A DNA stretch of 64,000 nt from Candidatus Obscuribacteraceae bacterium (GTDB lineage Bacteria; Cyanobacteriota; Vampirovibrionia; Obscuribacterales; Obscuribacteraceae), in contig JBGAHS010000001.1 of NCBI GenBank assembly GCA_044226015.1, forward strand, positions 704,001-768,000. Reading direction: 5' to 3'. Positions 2-11,417 of this stretch are shown here, in pieces. The notes below the pieces were generated by a model, which had not been told where the DNA came from, did not search any database, and was given only the letters and a program-made list of their open reading frames with translations. The position numbers and the translations under genes are program-made. How positions within the stretch are numbered: the stretch's first letter is position 1; every line of letters starts with the position of its first letter.

Positions 2-343
2 CAAGCACCTATCGGAAGTCAGATTGACCCAGCGCTTGCTCAAAAGTTGAACGAGCTCGAAGCAGCCAGAGACCATGAATCAGCAGTTGGCTTGCTGCGT
101 CAAGTTCTCACTCAGAACCTGCAGAATCCAGATATTCACCACAAACTGGCTGTGAATCTGTTGGCTGCAGGCAACGTGACAGAAGCAATCTCTGAGTTCC
201 GAATTGCATCGGCACTTCGCCCAGGCAACAAGGAGTTCGCAATCGACCTTGCAAGAGCAATGGAAATACACAAACGTTCCCAGGAAAGCGCGAATGAAGA
301 GCAAGTTCCAGCAGCATCAGGAAAAGAGGTAGCCGTTAAATGA
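2..343 (+). CDS. TPR-repeat protein, C-terminal part (5'-partial)
   Basis: Frame is open to the window edge; TPR-like helices (NPDIHHKLAVNLLAAGNVTEAISEFRIASALRP); stop overlaps the next start (ATGA at 340-343). Confidence 0.75.
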   Translation, partial: QAPIGSQIDPALAQKLNELEAARDHESAVGLLRQVLTQNLQNPDIHHKLAVNLLAAGNVTEAISEFRIASALRPGNKEFAIDLARAMEIHKRSQESANEEQVPAASGKEVAVK

Positions 344-3300
344 GCTTCTATTTCCAACCCCCAGATCTAGCTGAATTCCCGAGACGTTCGTACAGAAAGT
401 TTCTCGAAGAAACAATTGGCAAGCTTTTCACTGAAATTTCGCCAATTGGCAGTGAGTTCAACAACCGTTTCGAAATCTCTTTCATCGGCACCGATGGAAA
501 GGCTCACTGGAAGTTCGAAGACTACGGCATCGACTCCGGCTACCCAACATCGGCTGAACATGCTCGCAAATCTAACATGACGCATGCTCGCAGATTGCTC
601 ATGGACATCTGGCTTCGCGATACTCAGACTGGCGTACTGAGAAAGACCACCGCTTACATGGGTGACGTTCCAGTAATTACCGACCGCGGAACCTTCGTCA
701 TCAACGGTTCTGAGCGTGTCGTCCTTGGACAGTTGGTTCGTGCTCCTGGCGTATACTTCTCCAACCCAGACAATCAAATCTACAAAGCTTTGATTCTTGG
801 TGAACTTGGCGCTCCAATTTCTTTTGAACTCGACCTCGAGACCGGAACAGGCAAAACCAGCCGCGCTAAGTGCCGCATCAAGTTGCCAAAGCGTGGATGG
901 GTTTCAGCTGTAACCGTTTTGACAGCAATGGGCGTTGATTGGGATACATTGCAAAAGCGCATCTTCCCTTTGCTCAACAAGCATCGCATTGAGTACAAAC
1001 AACTCAACGCTTCCGAAGCCCTCTCAACCCTGGGCAGAGCCTGGAAGCCAGACGGTGCCGGCGGCGCAGGTGCTGGTTCTTCAGCACTTCAAGAAATCAC
1101 AGACCGTCGTCGTTATTCACTCGGTGATCTCGGTCGTCGTCGCTTCAACCGCAAACTAGACTCTGAAATTCAATCACTTCAGCTCACCAAAGAAGACATT
1201 CTTCTTGTTGTTGAATACTTGCTCAACCTGCCACTCGGCAATGGTACGACCGACAACATCGACAGCCTTGAAAATCGTCACCTTCGTGGAATTGGCGATG
1301 TTCTGACCAAAGCTGTTCGTCCAGCGCTTGCGCAGATGGTTCGTTCAGTTCGCACAAGACTCGAACTGCATGAAGATGATGAAGAAATCGGCAGCCCACA
1401 GGACTTTCTTGATGTTCGTCCTTTCGCAAATGCAATCAACAAGTTCTTCTCGGGCAATCCGTTGGTTCAATATCTCGACCAGCAAAACCCACTTTCTGAA
1501 CTTTCACATCGCCGCCGTATCACATCTTTCGGACCTGGCGGTATTGACCCGAACGCTGCACCGACAGAGATGCGCGACGTGCATCCAAGTCAGATTGGTC
1601 GCGTTTGCCTCGTAGAATCTCCTGAAGGTAAGAACTGCGGTATGGTGTCTTATATGGCAACATTCTGCCGCATCGATAACGACGGTTTCATGACCGTTCC
1701 TTACCGCCGTGTTGTTGATGGTGTAATGACAGATGCTGTCGATTACCTCACACCAGCTGACGACAAAAAATACACACTTGCACCACCCGATACCAAAGTT
1801 GATGGCATTCGCATTTGTGGACCAACAGTTTATGCTCGCCGTGGAGAAAGCTTCTATAACGTCGAACCGAGAGAAGTCGACTATATAGGAATTGCTCCAC
1901 AAGGTTTCCTCTCCGTCGGTTCCGGATTGATTCCTTTCCTCGAGCATGATGATGCCAACCGCGCTTTGATGGGCGGCGGCATGATGCGTCAAACTCTGCC
2001 TTTAATCAAGCCAGAGCGTCCACGCGTCGGAACCGGCATGGAAAAGATTGTTGCTAAGTCTTCTGGTCACTCAATCACCGCAAGACGCGCTGGCACAATC
2101 ACCAAGGTTACTGGCAAAGAAATTAGAGTGACACAGGCGTCTGGCGAATCGCGCACTTATCCTCTAATCCGCTATGACAGAACCAACCAGAACACCATTC
2201 TCGACCAGCGTCCAGCTGTGAAAGTTGGTGACAAAGTCGAAGCCGGACAAATCATCGCTGATGGACCTGGCATCGAAAAAGGCGAACTGGCACTCGGACG
2301 CAATCTCCTCGTAGCTTTCATTCCATGGAATGGACAGAACTATGAAGATGCTATCGTTGTCCGCCGTGGTTTGGTTCGTGACCACAAGCTAAGCCACATC
2401 GAAATCGAGAAGCACACAATCGGCGTTCACCAGACATTGCGTGGACCAGAAATCTTGACTCCAGAGCTTCCGAATATTTCTTCGAAAGATCTTGAGCATC
2501 TCGACGAGCGTGGCATCGCAAAGGTCGGCGCTTATGTTGAGCCTGGCGACATCCTGGTCTCTAAGCTTTCACCAAAAGAAGCTAAAGCAATGAGCGCTGA
2601 AGAAGAATTGCTTCAAGCAATCTTCGGAAAAGTCGCAGAAGAAATGGCTGACACCAGCTTGCGTGTTCCACACGGCTCTGGCGGTCGCGTCATCGATGTG
2701 CGCATCTTCACCCCGGAAACAACTCCAGAGTTGAAAGCTGGATTGATTTGCGAAATCGAAGTGCTCATCGCAAGACTCTGCCCGGTAGAAGTTGGCGATA
2801 AGCTCGCTGGACGCCACGGAAACAAGGGTATCGTTTCCATCATCGTTCCAGACGAAGACATGCCATATTTGCCAGACGGCACCCCTGTTGATATTTGCTT
2901 GAACCCACTGGGCGTTCCAAGCCGTATGAACATCGGACAGGTACTTGATACTCAGCTCGGTCTCTACTCGCAAATTCTCAACCGCTACTATCGCATTCAT
3001 CAATTCGATGAATCGTTGAGCCCAGATGCTTCGTTCAAACTAGTCAACGATGCACTTGCTGATGCTCGCAAAGTTCCAGGTTATGAGTGGATTGGCGAAA
3101 ACGGCAAAACAACACTTTATGACGGCAAGACTGGCGAGCCATTTGATCGTCCAGTTCTGGTCGGTCGCCAGTACATGCTGAAACTGAATCAATTGGTTCT
3201 GCACAAAATTAATGCTCGCTGCGGACTGGGTGGTCCATACGCTGCTGTAACCCAGCAACCCGTTGGTGGTAAAGCGAATCACGGCGGTCAGCGCATGGGT

Positions 3301-4179
3301 GAAATGGAAGTTTGGGCAATTCAAGCATACGGTGCTTCCCATATCCTTCACGAAATGATGACTGTAAAATCTGATGATGTAGAGGGACGTCACCAGATTT
3401 ATTCAGACATGGTACAAGGCAAAGAACTTACATCCGGAAAGAGAACCGCTGCGTTCGACGGACTTTGCTGCGAAATTCGTGGACTGGGTCTGGAAGTCAC
3501 TCTGGGCAAAGTTCTCGATGTCGAAGAGCCAATCGAGTCCAAAGCCTGCACCAAGAAGGGCAATGTCAAAACGAAGTCACTGGAAGAAGAATATCAAGTC
3601 AGCCATGTCGATCAACTCGAAGAAGACGGCAAGAAGATGGTCGAAATTCCAGCTGGCGATTATGAACCATTGATTCGTCCAACCGCTGAACCAGTTCTTG
3701 TTTCACTCGGAATGGGCAGAAATGCAAACAAAGTTCAATTTGATATGTCGGAAGAACCACTTATCGACGACATCGATGAAAACACTGAGTTGCAGCTGAT
3801 CGATGATTTCATCAGTGCCGAAACCGACGACATTATCGCTGCGCTCGGCAACGACAAGCCTGTTCAACCAGAAGCACCATGTTTGCGTAACATTGGACTC
3901 GATGATGTCGAGGACGAAGCCGAAGACATCTTCAGTATCAGTTCAATTATCAGAGCTGAAGCTGGCGACACTTCGATTCAAGGAACCGATGCTGCAAGAG
4001 CCGCAGTGCGTGCCGCTCAAAAGAGTCTCTGGGGTGATGATAAAAAAGATGAGCTGAGCTTTCCATCGTTCAGCGAACTCTCTTCACTTTCGCAACAACT
4101 TTCACAGCTCCTCGTTGGCGAACCCGAAAACGAGTTCAAGCCAGCAAATAATGAGCTGACGATTCTCACCAAGGAGTAA
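340..4179 (+). CDS. rpoB: Divergent DNA-directed RNA polymerase beta subunit (RpoB paralog) with acidic C-terminal extension
   Basis: Colinear beta motifs: GTFVINGSERV, DQQNPLSELSHRRR, PFLEHDDANRALMG, NYEDAI, GDKLAGRHGNKG, NPLGVPSRMNIGQ, GGQRMGEMEVWA, TVKSDD; no rpoC downstream. Confidence 0.95.
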   Translation: MSFYFQPPDLAEFPRRSYRKFLEETIGKLFTEISPIGSEFNNRFEISFIGTDGKAHWKFEDYGIDSGYPTSAEHARKSNMTHARRLLMDIWLRDTQTGVLRKTTAYMGDVPVITDRGTFVINGSERVVLGQLVRAPGVYFSNPDNQIYKALILGELGAPISFELDLETGTGKTSRAKCRIKLPKRGWVSAVTVLTAMGVDWDTLQKRIFPLLNKHRIEYKQLNASEALSTLGRAWKPDGAGGAGAGSSALQEITDRRRYSLGDLGRRRFNRKLDSEIQSLQLTKEDILLVVEYLLNLPLGNGTTDNIDSLENRHLRGIGDVLTKAVRPALAQMVRSVRTRLELHEDDEEIGSPQDFLDVRPFANAINKFFSGNPLVQYLDQQNPLSELSHRRRITSFGPGGIDPNAAPTEMRDVHPSQIGRVCLVESPEGKNCGMVSYMATFCRIDNDGFMTVPYRRVVDGVMTDAVDYLTPADDKKYTLAPPDTKVDGIRICGPTVYARRGESFYNVEPREVDYIGIAPQGFLSVGSGLIPFLEHDDANRALMGGGMMRQTLPLIKPERPRVGTGMEKIVAKSSGHSITARRAGTITKVTGKEIRVTQASGESRTYPLIRYDRTNQNTILDQRPAVKVGDKVEAGQIIADGPGIEKGELALGRNLLVAFIPWNGQNYEDAIVVRRGLVRDHKLSHIEIEKHTIGVHQTLRGPEILTPELPNISSKDLEHLDERGIAKVGAYVEPGDILVSKLSPKEAKAMSAEEELLQAIFGKVAEEMADTSLRVPHGSGGRVIDVRIFTPETTPELKAGLICEIEVLIARLCPVEVGDKLAGRHGNKGIVSIIVPDEDMPYLPDGTPVDICLNPLGVPSRMNIGQVLDTQLGLYSQILNRYYRIHQFDESLSPDASFKLVNDALADARKVPGYEWIGENGKTTLYDGKTGEPFDRPVLVGRQYMLKLNQLVLHKINARCGLGGPYAAVTQQPVGGKANHGGQRMGEMEVWAIQAYGASHILHEMMTVKSDDVEGRHQIYSDMVQGKELTSGKRTAAFDGLCCEIRGLGLEVTLGKVLDVEEPIESKACTKKGNVKTKSLEEEYQVSHVDQLEEDGKKMVEIPAGDYEPLIRPTAEPVLVSLGMGRNANKVQFDMSEEPLIDDIDENTELQLIDDFISAETDDIIAALGNDKPVQPEAPCLRNIGLDDVEDEAEDIFSISSIIRAEAGDTSIQGTDAARAAVRAAQKSLWGDDKKDELSFPSFSELSSLSQQLSQLLVGEPENEFKPANNELTILTKE

Positions 4180-4185
4180 CTTAGA

Positions 4186-5901
4186 ATGGCAGATGCACCA
4201 AAAAAGAAAGGAAGGTTTGTGAGACTGACGAGTCTCACGATGCTGACTGCATCCGCATTAATGACTGTGGCACCTGCAGCACTCGCTGACTACGCCGAAT
4301 GTTTAGGTGGACCGCGGCAAACAGATACTCTGAGAAATCCATTAGTTCCGGGCGCACCAAGCGGTTTGCCCGGACAAGCCGTTACAGGGTCCAGACCGCC
4401 AGCTGTCGGTGATGGTTCATGTCCTGCTCCCTTGATTCAAGGTGATGGCAACGGTCCAACCCGTGTCACAAGCGGTTATGCAGATCGCGGACATGGCAGT
4501 ATTTTCCAGGCCGGTGGCAGCCAGGGCGCTAAGGTTCCTTATGGCTACATCGGTGGTGCGGGTCGCTATCCGACATCTGCTGGTCGTCAGCAAGGTATGT
4601 ACGATTACGGTCAGGGTGCGCGTTACGGCAAAAATACTTATGAAGCCGGCGCAAGCAATCTTGGTCAAACAACATATGAGTCCGGAATGGAATTGTATGG
4701 ACAACGCAAGTATGACGCTGGTCAAGGCATGTATGGACAGACCATTTACCAGGGCAATGGTGGTGGCTATGGTCAACGCACCTACGAAATGGGCGGACAA
4801 ATAGCTGGTCAATCTACCTATGAAAGCGGCATGGGAAATTATGGTAACCGCAGCTATGACTACGGTCAGGGACTTGCTGGACAGGGCACCTACCAGAGTG
4901 GAGCCGGCAATTATGGTCAAAGAACTTATGAAAACGGATCTGAGTTAAGCGGCTCGTCTATGTATGACAATGGCGCTGGAAATGGCGGCATGCGCAAATA
5001 CGATAATGGCGGCGGCAACACTGGCTCGCGTATGTTCGACAATGGTCAGGGCAATGGCGGCACTCAGTATTATTCTGGTAAAGGTCGCGGCGGTCAGATG
5101 ACTTACGACAATGGCCAGGGTAATGGCGGAAAAAAGCTTGGTGATGGTGGCGCCGGAAATGGTGGCACCCGTAGCAATGATTTTGGAACAGAGGCCAACG
5201 GCAGCAGAATCAACAATGATGGTGGCACGCGCACAGGTGCGCAGGGTGTCTACAATGCTGGTGGACCACGTTCAAATGCAGACCAGTCGAATGATAATGT
5301 ATTTGCCCATGACAGACAGGGCAACAACTATGATTTCCAGGGTCCGCTTCCAACAGTTCGTACATTCTGTCGTTATTTAGTTATTCTCGGTGTTGTTGCC
5401 GCCTGCGTTTGGGTAGGCATGGCAGCCATCGGCGTTGTGATGGGTAATCGCAATGGAGTTGAAAGAGTTGTCGGAGCGATTGCAGGTCTTCTGCTATTGC
5501 TTGCAGGCTACACCATCTGGAAGATTGTCCAGATGAATACGTTCAAGGCCAATACCACTGGTGTCTGGTCAATGACTCGCGGAATGGCTCAGCCCAAACC
5601 ACAAAATGGACCAGTTAATCCTCCGCAGAACTTCGCTCCTCCAGAAGACCCAGGTCAGACTCCAGCAGCACCTGGACCAGGAGCCAACCAACAAGAGCAA
5701 CGTCAACGTACTGGTCCTCAAAACTACCGTCCAACGCAGGGTCAGACACCACGTGAAATTCAAGGTCCCTACAACTATCGTCCACAAGGTGGCTACACCG
5801 GTCACCCACAAGGTCCAAACAGAGTCGGCAGCTATGACATTCCTCCTGCCAATATCGTGCCTGAACCGCCCGAAATGCCTGTAATCAACCCGAATAGATA
5901 G
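4186..5901 (+). CDS. Exported/membrane protein with Gly/Tyr/Asn-rich 12-aa repeats, a two-TM pilin-like hairpin and a Pro/Gln-rich tail
   Basis: Signal-peptide-like N-terminus (KKKGRF...APAALA); YxxGxxxxGxxx repeats; two hydrophobic helices at about 5365-5525. Confidence 0.8.
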   Translation: MADAPKKKGRFVRLTSLTMLTASALMTVAPAALADYAECLGGPRQTDTLRNPLVPGAPSGLPGQAVTGSRPPAVGDGSCPAPLIQGDGNGPTRVTSGYADRGHGSIFQAGGSQGAKVPYGYIGGAGRYPTSAGRQQGMYDYGQGARYGKNTYEAGASNLGQTTYESGMELYGQRKYDAGQGMYGQTIYQGNGGGYGQRTYEMGGQIAGQSTYESGMGNYGNRSYDYGQGLAGQGTYQSGAGNYGQRTYENGSELSGSSMYDNGAGNGGMRKYDNGGGNTGSRMFDNGQGNGGTQYYSGKGRGGQMTYDNGQGNGGKKLGDGGAGNGGTRSNDFGTEANGSRINNDGGTRTGAQGVYNAGGPRSNADQSNDNVFAHDRQGNNYDFQGPLPTVRTFCRYLVILGVVAACVWVGMAAIGVVMGNRNGVERVVGAIAGLLLLLAGYTIWKIVQMNTFKANTTGVWSMTRGMAQPKPQNGPVNPPQNFAPPEDPGQTPAAPGPGANQQEQRQRTGPQNYRPTQGQTPREIQGPYNYRPQGGYTGHPQGPNRVGSYDIPPANIVPEPPEMPVINPNR

Positions 5902-5987
5902 AGATTAGAGCTAGTTCAGGAAAGAAAAAATCAGTATTAGAGACGGTTTTCACGCTATTCGAGAAAGAAAATAAACGGTACAACAAT

Positions 5988-6722
5988 ATGGTAATCGAGA
6001 TACAAGCAGGAAAAATGGCAATGAGCATGGCACTTGCCGCCGTGATACTCTCCGCCATTGCTCCAGCGGGCGCTACGCAACCTCGTAGTGAAGTCCGTGA
6101 GGATCGATTCGACAGAAGCACACCGCCACCCGCGCCAACGCGGGCACCACTGACGGGAAATGTATACTCTGTTCGCACCAATCCGCAGCCTGTTCTCAAC
6201 GTGCCTCATCCTGAGGTCTCAAAGCAAAGCACACCACAAGAATGGTTCAATGCGCTGGACACATATGTGGGCTTTTACAGACCAACCGACAAGGATAAGT
6301 ACGTCATAAATACCCCATTTAACGATGAGGTAGAGAAGGTAAATGCCTTCTGCAAAACTGTCGCTGGCGTTGCGCATAAATATCGAGCATTGGCCAAAAA
6401 CCTAAAAGCTATGCCGATTTCGACAAATCTTCCTGACCAACAAAAGGTCAAAGAATATAGAGATTTGCTCGCTAATTGGTACGACGACTCTGCGGTTGTT
6501 TATGAGGACATGATTCGTCCCAGACCAGCAGCAAAAACAAAAGAAGAACTGCAAGGCATGATTGGTTCCATCAGGGACAGATCAGAAAGCTTGAAGTCAA
6601 ATCTGGAACTTCTGCAAAAAATGGATTCAGACATCAGACTCTCTTGCCATGTAGACCCACCCAAATACGATGACATGATTCGCAAATATGCTGGCGAAGC
6701 TGGCTACGCAGGTCATCGCTAG
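5988..6722 (+). CDS. Secreted hypothetical protein (helical)
   Basis: 244-aa ORF with a signal-like N-terminus; true start may be an internal Met. Confidence 0.7.
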   Translation: MVIEIQAGKMAMSMALAAVILSAIAPAGATQPRSEVREDRFDRSTPPPAPTRAPLTGNVYSVRTNPQPVLNVPHPEVSKQSTPQEWFNALDTYVGFYRPTDKDKYVINTPFNDEVEKVNAFCKTVAGVAHKYRALAKNLKAMPISTNLPDQQKVKEYRDLLANWYDDSAVVYEDMIRPRPAAKTKEELQGMIGSIRDRSESLKSNLELLQKMDSDIRLSCHVDPPKYDDMIRKYAGEAGYAGHR

Positions 6723-6794
6723 CTCCTCCCCACTCTCTCCAATTCCCACACTTCAGGCTAATTTTTTGCCTAAAAAACAGAGGACTCCACCATC

Positions 6795-7571
6795 ATGGCC
6801 ATCCAATTAAGCGAGCGAGATATGATGATCTTCAAGTTCATTGAAGAGCACCAGGTACTTCTCGAAAAGCATATTGCCTGGTTCATTTCCTGCGATGAAA
6901 AGCCAGTCTTGATTCGCGATAGACTCAGGAAACTTTTTTACCTCGACTATCTTCTTTGTCAACGTCACGCAGGCAAATTGCCCTGGTGGACAACTCCGAC
7001 AAAGCCGCTAGTCTATATGCTCTCGCCCATGGCGCGTGGTATGGTAGCAAGTTCAGAGTGCGAGATGGACCTATCAGATACTGATGTTCAGCGCCACTTG
7101 CTTGAAGTAGCAAATTTGCGCATGATATTTTTGACAGACCAGAAAGCTGGACTCATCACCGAGTTTCACTGGACAACTGTACCGAGCGTGAGTTCACTGG
7201 CAACTATTTGTGCGACAGTTTCTTTCAACAGAAACGGCAGAGTTCATAGAGCCGCTGTGATCAACAACTTTGGCATCGCCGCAGACAGCGCGCGTGAGGC
7301 TGCAGAAAAAGCTATCGCAGATGGAAGCTCAGATATGATCTGGATAATTTCTTCTGATGAAGCTCAGCAAGAAACTCTGCAACAAGCTCTTAGCAGTTCG
7401 AATATTGCAAACAGAATTGCATTCACTACTCACCAGGAAATATACAAAGCTGGTGTTGTTAAAGCAAAATGGCAGAGTGCAAGCAAAGCTTATGCTCCCG
7501 TTATTGCCGAATCTGTCGTCGTGGCACACACCAATATGGCTTGGAATCCAAGCATGGCAACTCCAGCCTGA
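6795..7571 (+). CDS. wHTH protein, Replic_Relax (replication-relaxation)-like
   Basis: LSERDMMIFKFIEEHQVL...IRDRLRKLFYLDYL and HLLEVANLR resemble the Replic_Relax N-terminus; GAGG RBS upstream. Confidence 0.55.
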   Translation: MAIQLSERDMMIFKFIEEHQVLLEKHIAWFISCDEKPVLIRDRLRKLFYLDYLLCQRHAGKLPWWTTPTKPLVYMLSPMARGMVASSECEMDLSDTDVQRHLLEVANLRMIFLTDQKAGLITEFHWTTVPSVSSLATICATVSFNRNGRVHRAAVINNFGIAADSAREAAEKAIADGSSDMIWIISSDEAQQETLQQALSSSNIANRIAFTTHQEIYKAGVVKAKWQSASKAYAPVIAESVVVAHTNMAWNPSMATPA

Positions 7572-7624
7572 GCGAGATCGGCTGAAATCCTTTCCAGCAC
7601 TATGTTGGAACCCTGAGTATATTG

Positions 7625-7654
7625 AAAGAGCGATGTATCCCATCGCTCTTTTTT
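7625..7654 (+). terminator. Intrinsic terminator
   Basis: AAAGAGCGATG-tatcc-CATCGCTCTTT followed by TTT. Confidence 0.75.
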
Positions 7655-7672
7655 GCTAAGATTGCCAATAAC

Positions 7673-9187
7673 ATGGATCATAATCGGGAAATTGAGGCAG
7701 ATGAGGTTCGCGGCGAGACCGTCGTGAGCCCTCCTGAGGATCTGGCAAAGGTCGAGCACTCTGCTTCTCAGCCAAGTGCTGTAGATGCCAGAGCAAACAC
7801 CGATAGATCTGGTCAAAAACTTTCTGAAGAACTTCTAGACGCCCCCCTTGTACATGGTGGGCTCTGGAAAGCGATCTGGCTAATGTCCTGGCCGCTTTTA
7901 ATCAGCACTGTTGCCACGTCCATTGTTGGAGCAATTGATGTCCAGGTTTCCGGCTACCTGGGCAAAGAAGCGCAGGCTGCTGTGGGCATCGCAGAGCACG
8001 TGCTTTTCCTCTTTATGGTGTTCATCTTCTCTGTCAGTGTAGGCACCACGGCCATTGTTTCACGAGAGTTCGGCGAGGGAAATCTTGCTGGTACCATTGA
8101 TGGTGCCAGTCAATCGATTCAGCTTTCAGTTAGCAGTGGGTTTGTTCTTGCCTTAGCTGCCCTTTGTTTTGCCCATGTTTTGTTGCCATTCTTGAGCAAA
8201 GACCCTGAGATAATTCAGCTAGGCTCTACCTATCTGTCTATATTTAGCCTTTACATGGTACCTTTCAGTTTAATTTGCATTATCAATTCAGCCTTTCGTG
8301 CAATTGGTGATTCCAAAACGCCTCTATTTATTGTTCTGTTCGAGGTGATTGCCAACATTTTTGGTGACTATGCGGTTGTGTTGTGGAACTGGCCGGTTCC
8401 AGGTTTAGGTTTACGTGGTATCGCTGGGGCTGCGGTTGTATCCGCATTTATAGCTGCAGTGGTATCACTGGTGATGATTCGCCGATCACCTTTGCGTGAG
8501 GCACTGACATTGAATCGCCTCGGAAAATTTGATTGGAGCTGGCAAAAACGAATCTTGAAGATAGGCTTGCCTTCTGCAATTCAGCGGCTCGGCTGGGCGG
8601 GTAGCGTCTTTGCAGTTTTCTTCATTCTGGCTCAATTAAAAGAAAGTACTGCTGCTCTGGCCTCATGGACTATTGGAATGAGAATTGAGGCTTTACTTTT
8701 CATGCCACTAATGGCTTTTTCGCTTGCGGTCTCATCGATAGTAGGGCAAAATCTTGGTGCAGGTAAGCCAGAAAGAGCAATAAAAGCTGGTTGGAACGTC
8801 ACTCTCATTGGAGTGATTTCCATGTTTATTCTAGCCGCTGGCATGTATTTGCTGGCAGATCCTATTGCGCATTCCATGAGTCAAGATGCAAAAACAATTT
8901 CATTTGCGGCAGATTACATGCGAATAAATGCCATGGGCGAGCCATTCCTTGCCGTAGCTATGGTACTCATGGGTGCTATGCAAGGTGCTGGTGATACGAA
9001 GATTCCAATGTGGATTTCCTTGTTCTGCAATTGGGTGGTGCGTTTGCCTCTTGCCTGGTGGCTGGCGCTTAATTGCAAGCTAGAAACAAATGGTGTCTGG
9101 TACGCGATGATCAGTTCTGTCTTAGCCTGCGCGATTCTCTGTACTGTCAGATATCAATCGAAGCAGTGGCTCAAGGTGAAAATTTGA
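7673..9187 (+). CDS. MATE family efflux transporter
   Basis: Many TM helices; FRAIGDSKTPL, VGQNLGAG and MQGAGDTK motifs; ATG at 7673 preferred over the ORF-track start inside the terminator. Confidence 0.93.
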   Translation: MDHNREIEADEVRGETVVSPPEDLAKVEHSASQPSAVDARANTDRSGQKLSEELLDAPLVHGGLWKAIWLMSWPLLISTVATSIVGAIDVQVSGYLGKEAQAAVGIAEHVLFLFMVFIFSVSVGTTAIVSREFGEGNLAGTIDGASQSIQLSVSSGFVLALAALCFAHVLLPFLSKDPEIIQLGSTYLSIFSLYMVPFSLICIINSAFRAIGDSKTPLFIVLFEVIANIFGDYAVVLWNWPVPGLGLRGIAGAAVVSAFIAAVVSLVMIRRSPLREALTLNRLGKFDWSWQKRILKIGLPSAIQRLGWAGSVFAVFFILAQLKESTAALASWTIGMRIEALLFMPLMAFSLAVSSIVGQNLGAGKPERAIKAGWNVTLIGVISMFILAAGMYLLADPIAHSMSQDAKTISFAADYMRINAMGEPFLAVAMVLMGAMQGAGDTKIPMWISLFCNWVVRLPLAWWLALNCKLETNGVWYAMISSVLACAILCTVRYQSKQWLKVKI

Positions 9188-11168
9188 GCTTTTGCTCATT
9201 CAGAAAAGCGCGGATGTCAGAGACCTCTTTGCGGTGCATGTCATCAAATTCTGCCGGTTTTTCTTTCACCCATTTTTCGGCTCCTTGTAAGTACATTTCT
9301 GCTTCGCTTATTTTGTTGTTTGCCACCAGCAGGCGCACTAATTTGCCGGCAATATTTGATGCGCTGCCAGGACTTGCTACGGTTGGCGGCAATTGCTCAA
9401 TTTGTTGGAACGCTGTTTTCAATTCATCAACAGCATCCTCTGATTTACCAGCGCGGAAGGATATTTCACTCAAAGTATCTAACAAGTTGATTTTGTCTAT
9501 TCCTTCTGTTTTTGGATCTTTGTTGATGGTGGCAATCTCCTTCTTTGTAGCGAGATAGAGTTTATCGAACTCATGGAATTTCTTGAAATGCAATTCTGTC
9601 TCTAGTTCCGCAAGATGAAGTACTGCGGTGTCGACCTGACGGTCAGCCCCGCTCTCTAACTCTACGTAGTGTTTTACAGCCTCGAGAAATCTTCTGCTTT
9701 TGAATTCTGTCTTGTCCGAGAGAAGATCTAGAGTTGTGGAATGAATTTGCCATGCCATGCTATGCAGGCTGCCCTCACTGCCAACAATCGTCACAAGGTG
9801 GTATGAAATTTCTGAGCCCTCACCTTGCTTAAAGAACTCGTTATCATAATTCATCATGATAAAAACTTGACCAGGGTCGAAGCTTCCTTTTTTCGGAGTC
9901 AGACCCTCAACGATGCTGCTGACGCCTCTGAGAATAGCGAGGTCTTGATGAGCAAATTCATTGCTTTTATGATTATTTGGATACTCTGTTCCTAACAAAT
10001 TATATGCTTTGGCTGCAAGTGCGAGAGCCTGTTCTTCCTTTCCTTCCTCTTTCGCGCGATGTGCATCAGTAACATACTGTTTTGCTCGAGCTATTGTAGA
10101 CTCGCGGACATTCCTTTTTATTCTAACGGCAGGCAGCTGGTCGTTAGTCGTATGTGAGGTAAAGAAGATTGAGAGCCCAATCACTGTTATTAACACGATG
10201 CAAATTGCAGCAATGAAGGCCCACTGCTTTTCATTTCGTTTTGCCGCGCGGACCTTAGGTGCTTTATCCAGTGTGATGTCGTTCAAAACCTGGTTCAGTT
10301 TCTCAGCAAAAACTTGAGCTGATGCTGGACGATCAGCTGGGAGTTTTGCCAATCCCCACAATAAAAGTTTGGACAGTTCTATCGGTACTTCCATACGGCT
10401 GCTGAACTCTGCGGCTGTTGGAACTGGTGAATTGACGTGCATGAGCATGGTATCAAAGGCAGAGTCACCTTTAAATGGAGCTTCGCCTGAAAGAGCCATG
10501 TACATTACACAGCAAAGAGAGTAAATGTCTGACCTTCCATCGATGCTGGAGTTCTGACATTGTTCTGGGCTCATGAAAGAAGGGCTACCAACGACAGTTC
10601 CTGTGCGTGTCAGGTTCAAGGATTTTTCGTCGTAGAGTTTTGCTATTCCGAAATCCAAAAGCTTTACTATAGGTTTATCTGGATTTTCAGAATTCTCGCA
10701 AATCATTATGTTTGCTGGCTTGATGTCTCTATGCACAATGCCTGCAGCATGTGCTTTTTGTAGTGCTGAAAGTAATGGAATAAAGATGCTTTGAAAACGA
10801 CGAAATGTGAGAGGCGCATTCTTTGCGATTTCGTCAGATAGCGGAACACCATCCAGGTATTCGAAAATCAAATAGGGCTCTTCATTTTTAGTTAGCCCGT
10901 ACGCGAGTGTTTTGACTATTACCGGGTCGTCCATCGCTGAGCACAACTTTGCTTCTTGATGAAACCTGTCAATTCCGTTTGAGCCAGCCAGAGTAGCTTT
11001 AGAGAGTACTTTTACGGCCACGATTCGATCAAGCCTGCGTTGCCTGGCCTTGAACACTTGAGCCATGCCGCCTCTACCAATAGGCTCAATTATTTCGATT
11101 TCCGGAATGCTGGGAAAATCAGCTTGTACTGGTTTTAGCTCAGGATTTGATTCGTCCTGATGATTCAT
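9171..11168 (-). CDS. Hanks-type Ser/Thr protein kinase with TM helix and helical extracytoplasmic domain
   Basis: IGRGGMAQVF, VAVK, HRDIKPANI, DFG, MSPEQ, DIYSL motifs, then a TM helix; start may extend to 11237. Confidence 0.93.
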   Translation of the reverse strand: MNHQDESNPELKPVQADFPSIPEIEIIEPIGRGGMAQVFKARQRRLDRIVAVKVLSKATLAGSNGIDRFHQEAKLCSAMDDPVIVKTLAYGLTKNEEPYLIFEYLDGVPLSDEIAKNAPLTFRRFQSIFIPLLSALQKAHAAGIVHRDIKPANIMICENSENPDKPIVKLLDFGIAKLYDEKSLNLTRTGTVVGSPSFMSPEQCQNSSIDGRSDIYSLCCVMYMALSGEAPFKGDSAFDTMLMHVNSPVPTAAEFSSRMEVPIELSKLLLWGLAKLPADRPASAQVFAEKLNQVLNDITLDKAPKVRAAKRNEKQWAFIAAICIVLITVIGLSIFFTSHTTNDQLPAVRIKRNVRESTIARAKQYVTDAHRAKEEGKEEQALALAAKAYNLLGTEYPNNHKSNEFAHQDLAILRGVSSIVEGLTPKKGSFDPGQVFIMMNYDNEFFKQGEGSEISYHLVTIVGSEGSLHSMAWQIHSTTLDLLSDKTEFKSRRFLEAVKHYVELESGADRQVDTAVLHLAELETELHFKKFHEFDKLYLATKKEIATINKDPKTEGIDKINLLDTLSEISFRAGKSEDAVDELKTAFQQIEQLPPTVASPGSASNIAGKLVRLLVANNKISEAEMYLQGAEKWVKEKPAEFDDMHRKEVSDIRAFLNEQKLKFSP

Positions 11169-11417
11169 AGCCCAACCTCTCTCGCAAAATTTGCGACTCA
11201 CTCTAGACTGTTGGGGGGTAATATCTTCTATTCCCAATCCAACATTCGATTCACATGAATTGGATAAAACTAACCATTCTTTGAGTAAGCCAAAACTCTG
11301 GTTGTTTCCCTTCTCAAAACAAGGGCAGCATCATTACTTGCAAATTAAAAGTGAATGGCACCTGGACCGGGAAGGGTAGTGCCATTCACTTTGTATCAGA
11401 ATCTATAATTACTGAAC

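Follow-up and report, generated by a model that had tools for sequence, protein, structure and literature searches.

A divergent second RNA polymerase beta subunit in Obscuribacterales, encoded in a conserved operon that shares an upstream motif with a chromosomal VirB4/VirD4/relaxase cluster

The usual view is that a bacterial cell adapts its one RNA polymerase to different tasks by exchanging sigma factors, and the known duplicates of rpoB are near-identical resistance alleles. Plant Pol IV/V and the two-subunit RNA polymerases of phages are specialised by subunit duplication and rewired DNA contacts; the former are eukaryotic and the latter bring their own beta-prime, whereas the protein described here has no partner paralog. 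This protein, RpoB2, is a second beta subunit encoded in a five-gene operon at the start of a 64,000-nucleotide stretch of DNA (the window) from a Candidatus Obscuribacteraceae bacterium (GCA_044226015.1, contig JBGAHS010000001.1; hereafter G000, contig C11). Its operon carries an upstream motif in common with a chromosomal cluster of VirB4, VirD4 and relaxase genes. In the reading we prefer, which we rate a little short of an even chance, RpoB2 would form a second active polymerase for a transfer state, dedicated to this conjugation-like secretion system. The operon and the order-wide system appear new to the literature: we found no description of an rpoB paralog or a VirB4/relaxase cluster in Obscuribacterales or Melainabacteria (subscription journals and supplements lay outside the search), and the portions available of PMC4040986 and 10.1101/2020.02.28.969766 mention neither.

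The closest described counterparts of RpoB2 are the rpoB duplicates of actinomycetes (rpoB(R) of Nonomuraea and rpoB2 of Nocardia), in which a second chromosomal beta subunit shares the other core subunits, carries changes in the fork and rifamycin region and has been proposed to redirect transcription (PMC5431353). The known duplicates depart from their housekeeping copy at about five substituted positions plus a six-residue deletion, and carry H526N and S531Y (PMC5431353). By contrast with this handful of residues, RpoB2 is 42% identical to the housekeeping protein and keeps H526; unlike the actinomycete duplicates, it is fixed across an order and lies in an operon tied to a secretion system. 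On the side of transfer, the MOB_C relaxases (PF13814; TraX of pAD1, MobC of CloDF13) combine a winged helix with a restriction-endonuclease fold and active site (PMC5357655, PMC12857230, PMC6499999) and are found with VirD4 (PMC5357655), and the true Replic_Relax gene of our genome likewise adjoins VirD4. MOB_C systems reside on plasmids or integrative conjugative elements, whereas the system here is single-copy, chromosomal and order-wide, and the relaxase relative within the operon (gene 5) scores under the Pfam threshold and is without the catalytic glutamate. Transfer machinery is a lineage core trait in Patescibacteria, with their fixed type IV secretion system, and in the chromosomal transfer of Streptomyces and Mycobacterium (PMC12857230); what differs here is the proposed association of relaxase and VirD4 with a dedicated beta subunit, and the term 'RNA polymerase' is absent from the main text of that review. 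Vampirovibrio chlorellavorus, of the same class, has a type IV secretion system as well, but of the T-type and largely plasmid-borne (PMC4451040). Frpo single-stranded promoters show RNA polymerase serving conjugation on transferred DNA, although there it is the ordinary host enzyme with no special subunit (PMC9849209).

A sequence-only reading of the window had proposed an operon of five co-oriented genes, from a TPR gene through an RpoB paralog to a DNA-binding protein. All five plus-strand reading frames are present (Table 1), the ATGA overlap at 340-343 joins the TPR and rpoB2 frames, the gaps between the successive later genes re-measure as 6, 86 and 72 bp, and the terminator placed at 7625-7654 is a 12-pair stem (-16.4 kcal/mol) followed by a T-run. 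A generic terminator scan did not list this hairpin, and such promoter and terminator scans returned no excess over shuffled sequence; similar hairpins lie within 150 nt past gene 5 in 30/77 relatives by a crude scan without shuffle control. The first gene encodes a 696-amino-acid TPR protein and starts at C11:702253, about 1.75 kb before the window (6253-8343 in the fetched stretch L002).

That reading had also held that the operon would fall if the paralog's neighbours were not conserved in other genomes; they are kept across the order. The order TPR-RpoB2-gene 3-gene 4-gene 5 recurs in all 65 loci with at least 8.5 kb upstream, and of the remaining 15 loci one shorter locus has the full order and 14 agree with it up to the contig end. 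These 80 loci were picked through gene 5 (90 found, best 80 kept), operons lacking gene 5 being invisible to the sample, and they overlap the genomes used for neighbourhood comparison. The 4-nt overlap between TPR and rpoB2 is present at 47/66 junctions examined, the start not being located in 12. Among these best 80 of 90, the gene 5 records mostly go under Obscuribacterales, Obscuribacter or Melainabacteria, while some are uncultured or carry labels at odds with this; a search of 250 other genomes of the phylum did not turn up the gene 5 family. A second RpoB at 69-89% identity occurs within the order only (61 relatives compared), in at least 89 of 107 order genomes counted as distinct genomes among the matches listed, whereas 21/21 genomes of other orders gave a single RpoB match each (41-44% identity) and RpoB2 in 0/21. 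In line with this, RpoB2 forms a tight clade in the protein collection (70-91% identity, next sequences at most 47%). The patchy mobile distribution of an integrative conjugative element was not found: the operon is single-copy, order-wide and conserved in gene order, with a GC content of 0.48-0.52 against 0.47 for the contig. One genome, G013 (8% contamination), has two RpoB2 loci (C21 and C50), both with the upstream motif, from duplication or a mixed bin.

RpoB2 proved to be what the sequence-only reading had called it, an RpoB paralog, and a divergent one, at 41.7% identity to the housekeeping RpoB, whose rpoB-rpoC1-rpoC2 operon lies on the same contig 600 kb from rpoB2. A core (residues 1-1057) with the Rpb2 domains PF04563 (just under cut-off), PF04561, PF04565, PF10385, PF00562 and PF04560 is followed by a poorly conserved acidic tail of 222 amino acids (22.5% D+E). 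We aligned 97 RpoB2 sequences to E. coli RpoB, whose numbering is used for single residues of the beta subunit. E813, D814, R678, Q688, K1065, K1073 and R1106 are kept in 97/97 sequences, as are R151, D446 and R451 of the core recognition element (CRE) pocket and D1084, M1085, G1215 and G1218. We take E813, D814, R678 and R1106 to be catalytic (metal and nucleotide binding) and D1084, M1085, G1215 and G1218 to bind alpha; the gate loop and the Mfd/CarD docking motif at E119 are likewise our presumed assignments.

Around this preserved centre, positions that other beta subunits hold constant have been replaced. In 31 canonical sequences, 310 columns are invariant or almost so; RpoB2 has the same residue at 201 of these, varies at 52 and is fixed to another residue at 57, with fixed changes at the bubble contacts, fork loop 2, the flap tip, switch 3 and H1237. 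W183P and the pair G373D/E374G are found in 97/97 sequences, D199P in 96/97, R540P and R542A in 92/97 each, and G544P and F1265H are fixed or nearly fixed; E119K is present in 96/97. At the flap tip, K900E and R903Q (97/97) and E908K and K909V (96/97) reverse or remove charges, whereas L901, L902 and F906 are kept. H1237 and W183 are present in 21/21 canonical RpoB proteins but are Q and P in 97/97 RpoB2. Roles have been described for W183, D446 and fork loop 2 (PMC4499132), for the flap tip in contacting sigma4 (PMC5101437), and for K1065 and K1073 in the active site and H1237 at the primer phosphate (10.1101/2021.04.06.438613).

Some of the fixed changes line the rifamycin pocket (V146L, S512V, S531T, L533F and I572V in 97/97, Q510P in 96/97), and a duplicate rpoB with such a role is known (PMC5431353). 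Both would suit a beta subunit kept in reserve, antibiotic-resistant or 'stringent-like', of the sort seen in Nonomuraea and Nocardia, with its place beside envelope genes due to chance. Against this, H526, D516, Q513 and R529 are kept in 97/97 RpoB2, whereas known duplicates carry H526N; identity is down to 42% and the changes reach the flap, gate loop and switch 3; and the motif common with the VirB4 cluster would be left unexplained, so that we find a spare subunit improbable. RpoB2 does not match the rifamycin-resistant duplicates described so far, having 41.7% identity, H526 in 97/97 and S531T in 97/97 in place of near-identity, H526N and S531Y.

The cluster of substitutions H1237Q, D1240L, D1241H, H1244N and Q1264N, all fixed in 97/97, together with the long acidic tail could instead point to a decoy or scaffold without catalytic activity, which would titrate alpha/beta-prime or sigma and thereby shut down ordinary transcription in the transfer state. 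A decoy, however, would not need the remaining active-site residues, and these are invariant in 97 sequences at 70-91% identity; we consider it very improbable. An active enzyme would have to borrow its partners: five of five genomes have one rpoA and one catalytic rpoC1, and G000 has a single rpoC1/rpoC2, RpoB2 bringing neither its own beta-prime nor its own alpha, which implies that an RpoB2 enzyme would share them with the housekeeping polymerase. Nor does RpoB2 match the multisubunit RNA polymerases of phages or selfish elements, a beta-prime gene of its own being absent and the PF00623 locus single in 5/5 genomes.

In the tree, the stem branch of RpoB2 measures 2.94 changes per column and is followed by short internal branches; because its root joins another long branch, we do not read a donor from the tree. 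Comparison of rpoB2 with two relatives from the genus gives a dN of about 0.085, with dS near saturation. The best solved-structure sequence matches of RpoB2 are presumably cyanobacterial, judged by their entry codes. Basal in the RpoB2 clade is a protein (P0127/P0150, one 13,316-bp contig) that lacks the acidic tail and is fused in frame to the whole gene 3 product. A weak search among long proteins gave no further fusions, the matches listed in 107 genomes held no fused frame, and two candidates (L175, L176) were ruled out, their genes being separate. A separate pair of divergent 1063-amino-acid RpoB proteins (P0136, P0138), on a long branch and with an altered fork loop 2, is not RpoB2.

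One tie between the operon and the secretion genes is its promoter-like upstream region. Upstream of the TPR gene, the inverted repeat TGGG-N6-CCCA is followed 18-27 nt on by TAAGCT in 57/65 loci, mismatches allowed. A strict motif derived from the operon upstream regions alone matches only two places in the 8.19 Mb of G000, one before the operon and the other at C10:81406. The latter heads a DUF2225 gene in a cluster of DUF2225, VirB3-like, VirB4, VirB8-like, VirD4 and relaxase genes, in which another DUF2225 gene, with a repeat of its own (C10:71849), directly precedes VirB3-like-VirB4. Across relatives the repeat stands before the heads of sub-operons (DUF2225 10/11, VirB6-like 9/11, u241 7/8, PILN2 4/4) and rarely before internal genes (relaxase 1/11, VirD4 1/10, VirB3-like 2/11, VirB2-like 0/10, u224 0/10, PILN1 1/12), against a background of 60/1033. 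The strict motif was found in 24/28 order genomes and 2/13 others, with 51 matches against 6 for a reversed control. From its spacing we infer that it could be an activator site overlapping the -35 element of a sigma70-type promoter, and the repeat itself resembles the DosR operator.

This cluster is a vertically kept, order-wide and chromosomal VirB4/VirD4/relaxase system. VirB4 was detected in 33/33 order genomes and 0/118 other genomes of the class (E 1e-30), the relaxase was matched in 99/107 order genomes, and gene order is kept in the relatives fetched. The relaxase gene (C10:63035-63886) matches PF13814 at 46.8 bits, above cut-off, with D175 in 12/12 sequences and E193 in 9/12; it lies within two reading frames of VirD4 in seven relatives and on a separate stretch in G037, G352, G011 and G309. 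The labels VirB2-, VirB3-, VirB6- and VirB8-like come from size, hydrophobicity and position only, and these genes have no Pfam match; the 142-amino-acid VirB2-like product is 81-90% identical across the order. Two more TraG/VirD4-type matches lie at C2:5367-5705 and C12:329923-330264 of G000, C2 being a 70-kb contig and possibly a plasmid or mobile element.

The co-regulation could also be historical, an old element having captured rpoB, with RpoB2 now at work in a general stress or developmental programme that is mechanistically unconnected to secretion. This would agree with two genomes (G037, G038) that keep the VirB4 cluster without a detectable operon and with the inverted repeat alone, of which G000 has 31 copies, many of them ahead of genes unrelated to the system. 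Yet three of these 31 fall inside the 27-kb cluster where 0.1 would be expected, four of the five operon genes either count as likely envelope or transfer genes themselves or have paralogs there, and the translational-coupling overlap is widely kept; we accordingly give a purely historical link little credence.

The most likely candidate to bind the inverted repeat is a NarL/LuxR response regulator encoded divergently upstream of the operon in 46/65 loci and located about 6.5 kb further up in G000. It occurs in 24/26 order genomes and 0/95 others and is 79-93% conserved. LmeA-like and GerMN genes usually follow it, and the part of the intergenic region next to it contains another conserved motif, ATTGTAACA.

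Gene 5 provides a second connection. The sequence-only reading had called its product Replic_Relax-like, and it is indeed a full-length paralog of the genome's Replic_Relax relaxase (HHalign probability 97.9, E 5e-13, 230 columns, end to end). PF13814 itself does not match the window protein, which is below the Pfam cut-off; in the gene 5 family it matches 1/25 members at E 0.0043, P0005 reaching 20 bits against a cut-off of 25.3, and further Atlas and HMM links to PF13814 are weak. The C-terminal part is modelled as a PD-(D/E)xK restriction-endonuclease fold (best match PaqCI, Z 8.2, rmsd 4.3, 122 aligned; other nuclease folds below Z 8.2), a middling Z that is backed by the HHalign match to the PF13814-positive paralog. 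The N-terminal part is helical in a low-confidence model (pLDDT 44-60), and positions 5-112 give profile matches to two PF13814 proteins. At the catalytic positions of the relaxase, E193 is replaced by N in 24/25 members and by S in 1/25, and D175 is retained in 17/25 but is C in the window protein. This loss of the second catalytic acid suggests that gene 5 probably encodes a nuclease-dead DNA-binding protein with a predicted winged helix. A complex prediction of RpoB2 1-700 with gene 5 1-240, with the flap and C-terminal parts outside the model, scored 0.00 and is uninformative on binding.

The remaining three genes probably encode envelope proteins. The TPR protein has a hydrophobic, signal-peptide-like N-terminus by hydropathy and is likely exported; a paralog at C1:205881, beside the genome's second VirB4 cluster, is 24% identical over 583 columns. 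The gene 3 product starts with a signal-like segment and has a Pro/Gly domain, a Gly/Tyr/Asn repeat tract that varies between lineages and, towards its end, a conserved membrane hairpin of two helices (residues 393-445, from alignment and hydropathy); its N-terminal Pro/Gly domain is common to two genes of the VirB4/VirD4 cluster (C10:88342 and C10:89351; HHalign 98.3). The label pilin-like, given to gene 3 earlier, found no support in profiles: no Pfam pilin matched in 25 members and HHalign gave a probability of 0.8 against the cluster's VirB2-like family. A signal-like segment and a hydrophobic hairpin are present. A gene 3 homologue lies elsewhere in the genome in G019 and G309. The label of gene 4 as secreted fared better, its hydrophobic, signal-like N-terminus making export likely; the model is a helical bundle (pLDDT 83), with no clear PDB fold, no informative Atlas match and one distant paralog (C10:278579).

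The altered RpoB copy and the motif common with the secretion genes together argue for a second polymerase dedicated to that machinery, and the following sequence of events would account for them. RpoB2 would take the place of the housekeeping beta subunit beside the cell's only alpha and beta-prime, yielding a second, catalytically active RNA polymerase. An activator, most likely the NarL/LuxR regulator beside the operon, would bind TGGG-N6-CCCA about 43 bp upstream of the predicted start and turn both loci on. The TPR, gene 3 and gene 4 proteins would be accessory parts of the secretion apparatus, while the polymerase containing RpoB2, whose flap tip is reversed in charge and whose bubble contacts are weakened, would pair with a particular sigma, the dead relaxase paralog or both, and transcribe transfer-state genes, possibly including its own operon. 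The operon would then supply accessory and regulatory parts to a domesticated conjugation-like system, both induced together via one operator. Two suggestions of the sequence-only reading gain ground here: a domesticated mobile-element module, from the paralogy of gene 5 to a relaxase beside VirD4/VirB4 in a vertically kept cluster, and a dedicated DNA-transfer programme, from the common upstream motif of operon and VirB4 cluster. As partner, any of the 17 sigma-70 family genes of G000, nine of them of 320-410 amino acids, could serve; none of the 17 is convincingly linked to the motif.

The same observations can be arranged differently. In a domesticated conjugation programme, the beta-swapped polymerase might act on the transferred DNA itself and not on ordinary promoters. 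The dead relaxase paralog would recruit it to transfer origins or to single-stranded DNA beside the membrane channel, and there it would prime or transcribe the moved DNA and make primers or early transcripts as at Frpo. The fixed loss of non-template-strand and bubble contacts (W183P, D199P, G373D, E374G, R540P, R542A), E119K in 96/97 at the presumed Mfd/CarD docking motif, H1237Q at the primer-phosphate site and the co-encoded relaxase paralog are all in keeping with this, as is the membrane-protein fusion, which would put RpoB2 at the envelope. W183 is stacked against the non-template base at +1, and the W183A change shortens the open-complex half-life five-fold without slowing elongation (PMC4499132); there is also precedent for a polymerase on transferred single-stranded DNA (PMC9849209). 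On the other hand, the CRE pocket (R151, D446, R451) is kept in 97/97 and so is the hydrophobic flap-tip anchor, no oriT was identified, and DNA transfer by the cluster itself is only putative. We regard action on transferred DNA, in either wording, as unlikely, though it is the main rival of the preferred reading.

Several observations weigh against a polymerase dedicated to secretion. The shared promoters look conventional (an activator site and a sigma70-like -10), which would let the housekeeping polymerase transcribe from them without RpoB2. H1237Q, in 97/97, falls on the primer-phosphate contact, and the RpoB2-gene 3 fusion is known from a single contig. Two of five stretches fetched (G326, G327) have the operon without gene 3; G037 (94% complete) and G038 (88%) retain VirB4 and relaxase, but orthologues of RpoB2, gene 5 and TPR were not detected in them, and G038 has the NarL/LuxR regulator in intact DNA without the operon. 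The relaxase lacks the E of the ExD motif in 3/12 rows. The second VirB4 cluster of G000 has no good motif site, and its VirB4 paralog, present across the order, is split into two frames (699 + 193 amino acids) in G000. Finally, all these genomes are kin, so their co-occurrences count as one event, not many.

If the dedicated polymerase is real, core-subunit exchange would be a regulatory device, with a beta subunit at 42% identity that keeps the active site while otherwise invariant DNA and sigma contacts are replaced. RpoB2 offers a natural experiment on which polymerase contacts (W183, fork loop 2, H1237, the flap tip) are dispensable, and its motif exposes a chromosomal secretion system in the non-photosynthetic sister group of cyanobacteria. 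An operator sequence, a candidate regulator and reconstitutable subunits are handles on the lifestyle of this uncultured group. In practical terms, marker studies of Obscuribacterales genomes based on rpoB can take the wrong copy.

Table 1. Locations of the operon, its upstream elements and the VirB4 clusters in the source genome, G000 (C, contig).
Feature	Location	Strand	Remarks
Window	G000:C11:704001-768000		operon on + strand
TGGG-N6-CCCA-N~24-TAAGCT	C11:702209-702252		directly before TPR gene
TPR gene, 3' end	window 2..343	+	5' open; Pfam TPR families
RpoB2	window 340..4179	+	1279 aa; six Rpb2 Pfam domains
Gene 3 (PIL), predicted membrane protein	window 4186..5901	+	571 aa; no Pfam family
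Gene 4 (SEC), likely exported all-helical protein	window 5988..6722	+	244 aa; no family assigned
Gene 5 (HTH), Replic_Relax paralog	window 6795..7571	+	258 aa
Intrinsic-terminator-like hairpin, end of unit	window 7624..7654	+	fold -16.4 kcal/mol
NarL/LuxR response regulator	L001:10765-11679 = G000:C11:694765-695679		
Replic_Relax + VirD4 + VirB4 cluster	G000:C10:63035-90202		27 kb; Pfam
Second VirB4 cluster	G000:C1:171194-209615		three VirB6-like, TadE/TadG-like, TPR genes

Contig pieces near-identical to rpoB2 and to genes 3-5 occur in three RNA libraries from three studies; a contig of 371 nt spans window 5756-6117 and bridges the gap between genes 3 and 4. Because the contigs show no strand and DNA carry-over is possible, this is weak evidence of expression; that the same contigs leave the 5' end of the TPR gene and the MATE gene uncovered carries no weight.

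Further high-scoring motif sites in G000 (C1:4659(-), C1:937509(+), C1:822302(-), C9:339532(-), C3:223149(-)) precede large uncharacterised proteins and an L,D-transpeptidase (YkuD), possibly further regulon members or secretion substrates. Past the operon, a MATE transporter gene (MatE; window 7622-9187) is followed by a convergent Ser/Thr-kinase-like gene (9171-11237); these two are not kept 3' of the operon beyond close relatives, and the neighbours on this side vary.

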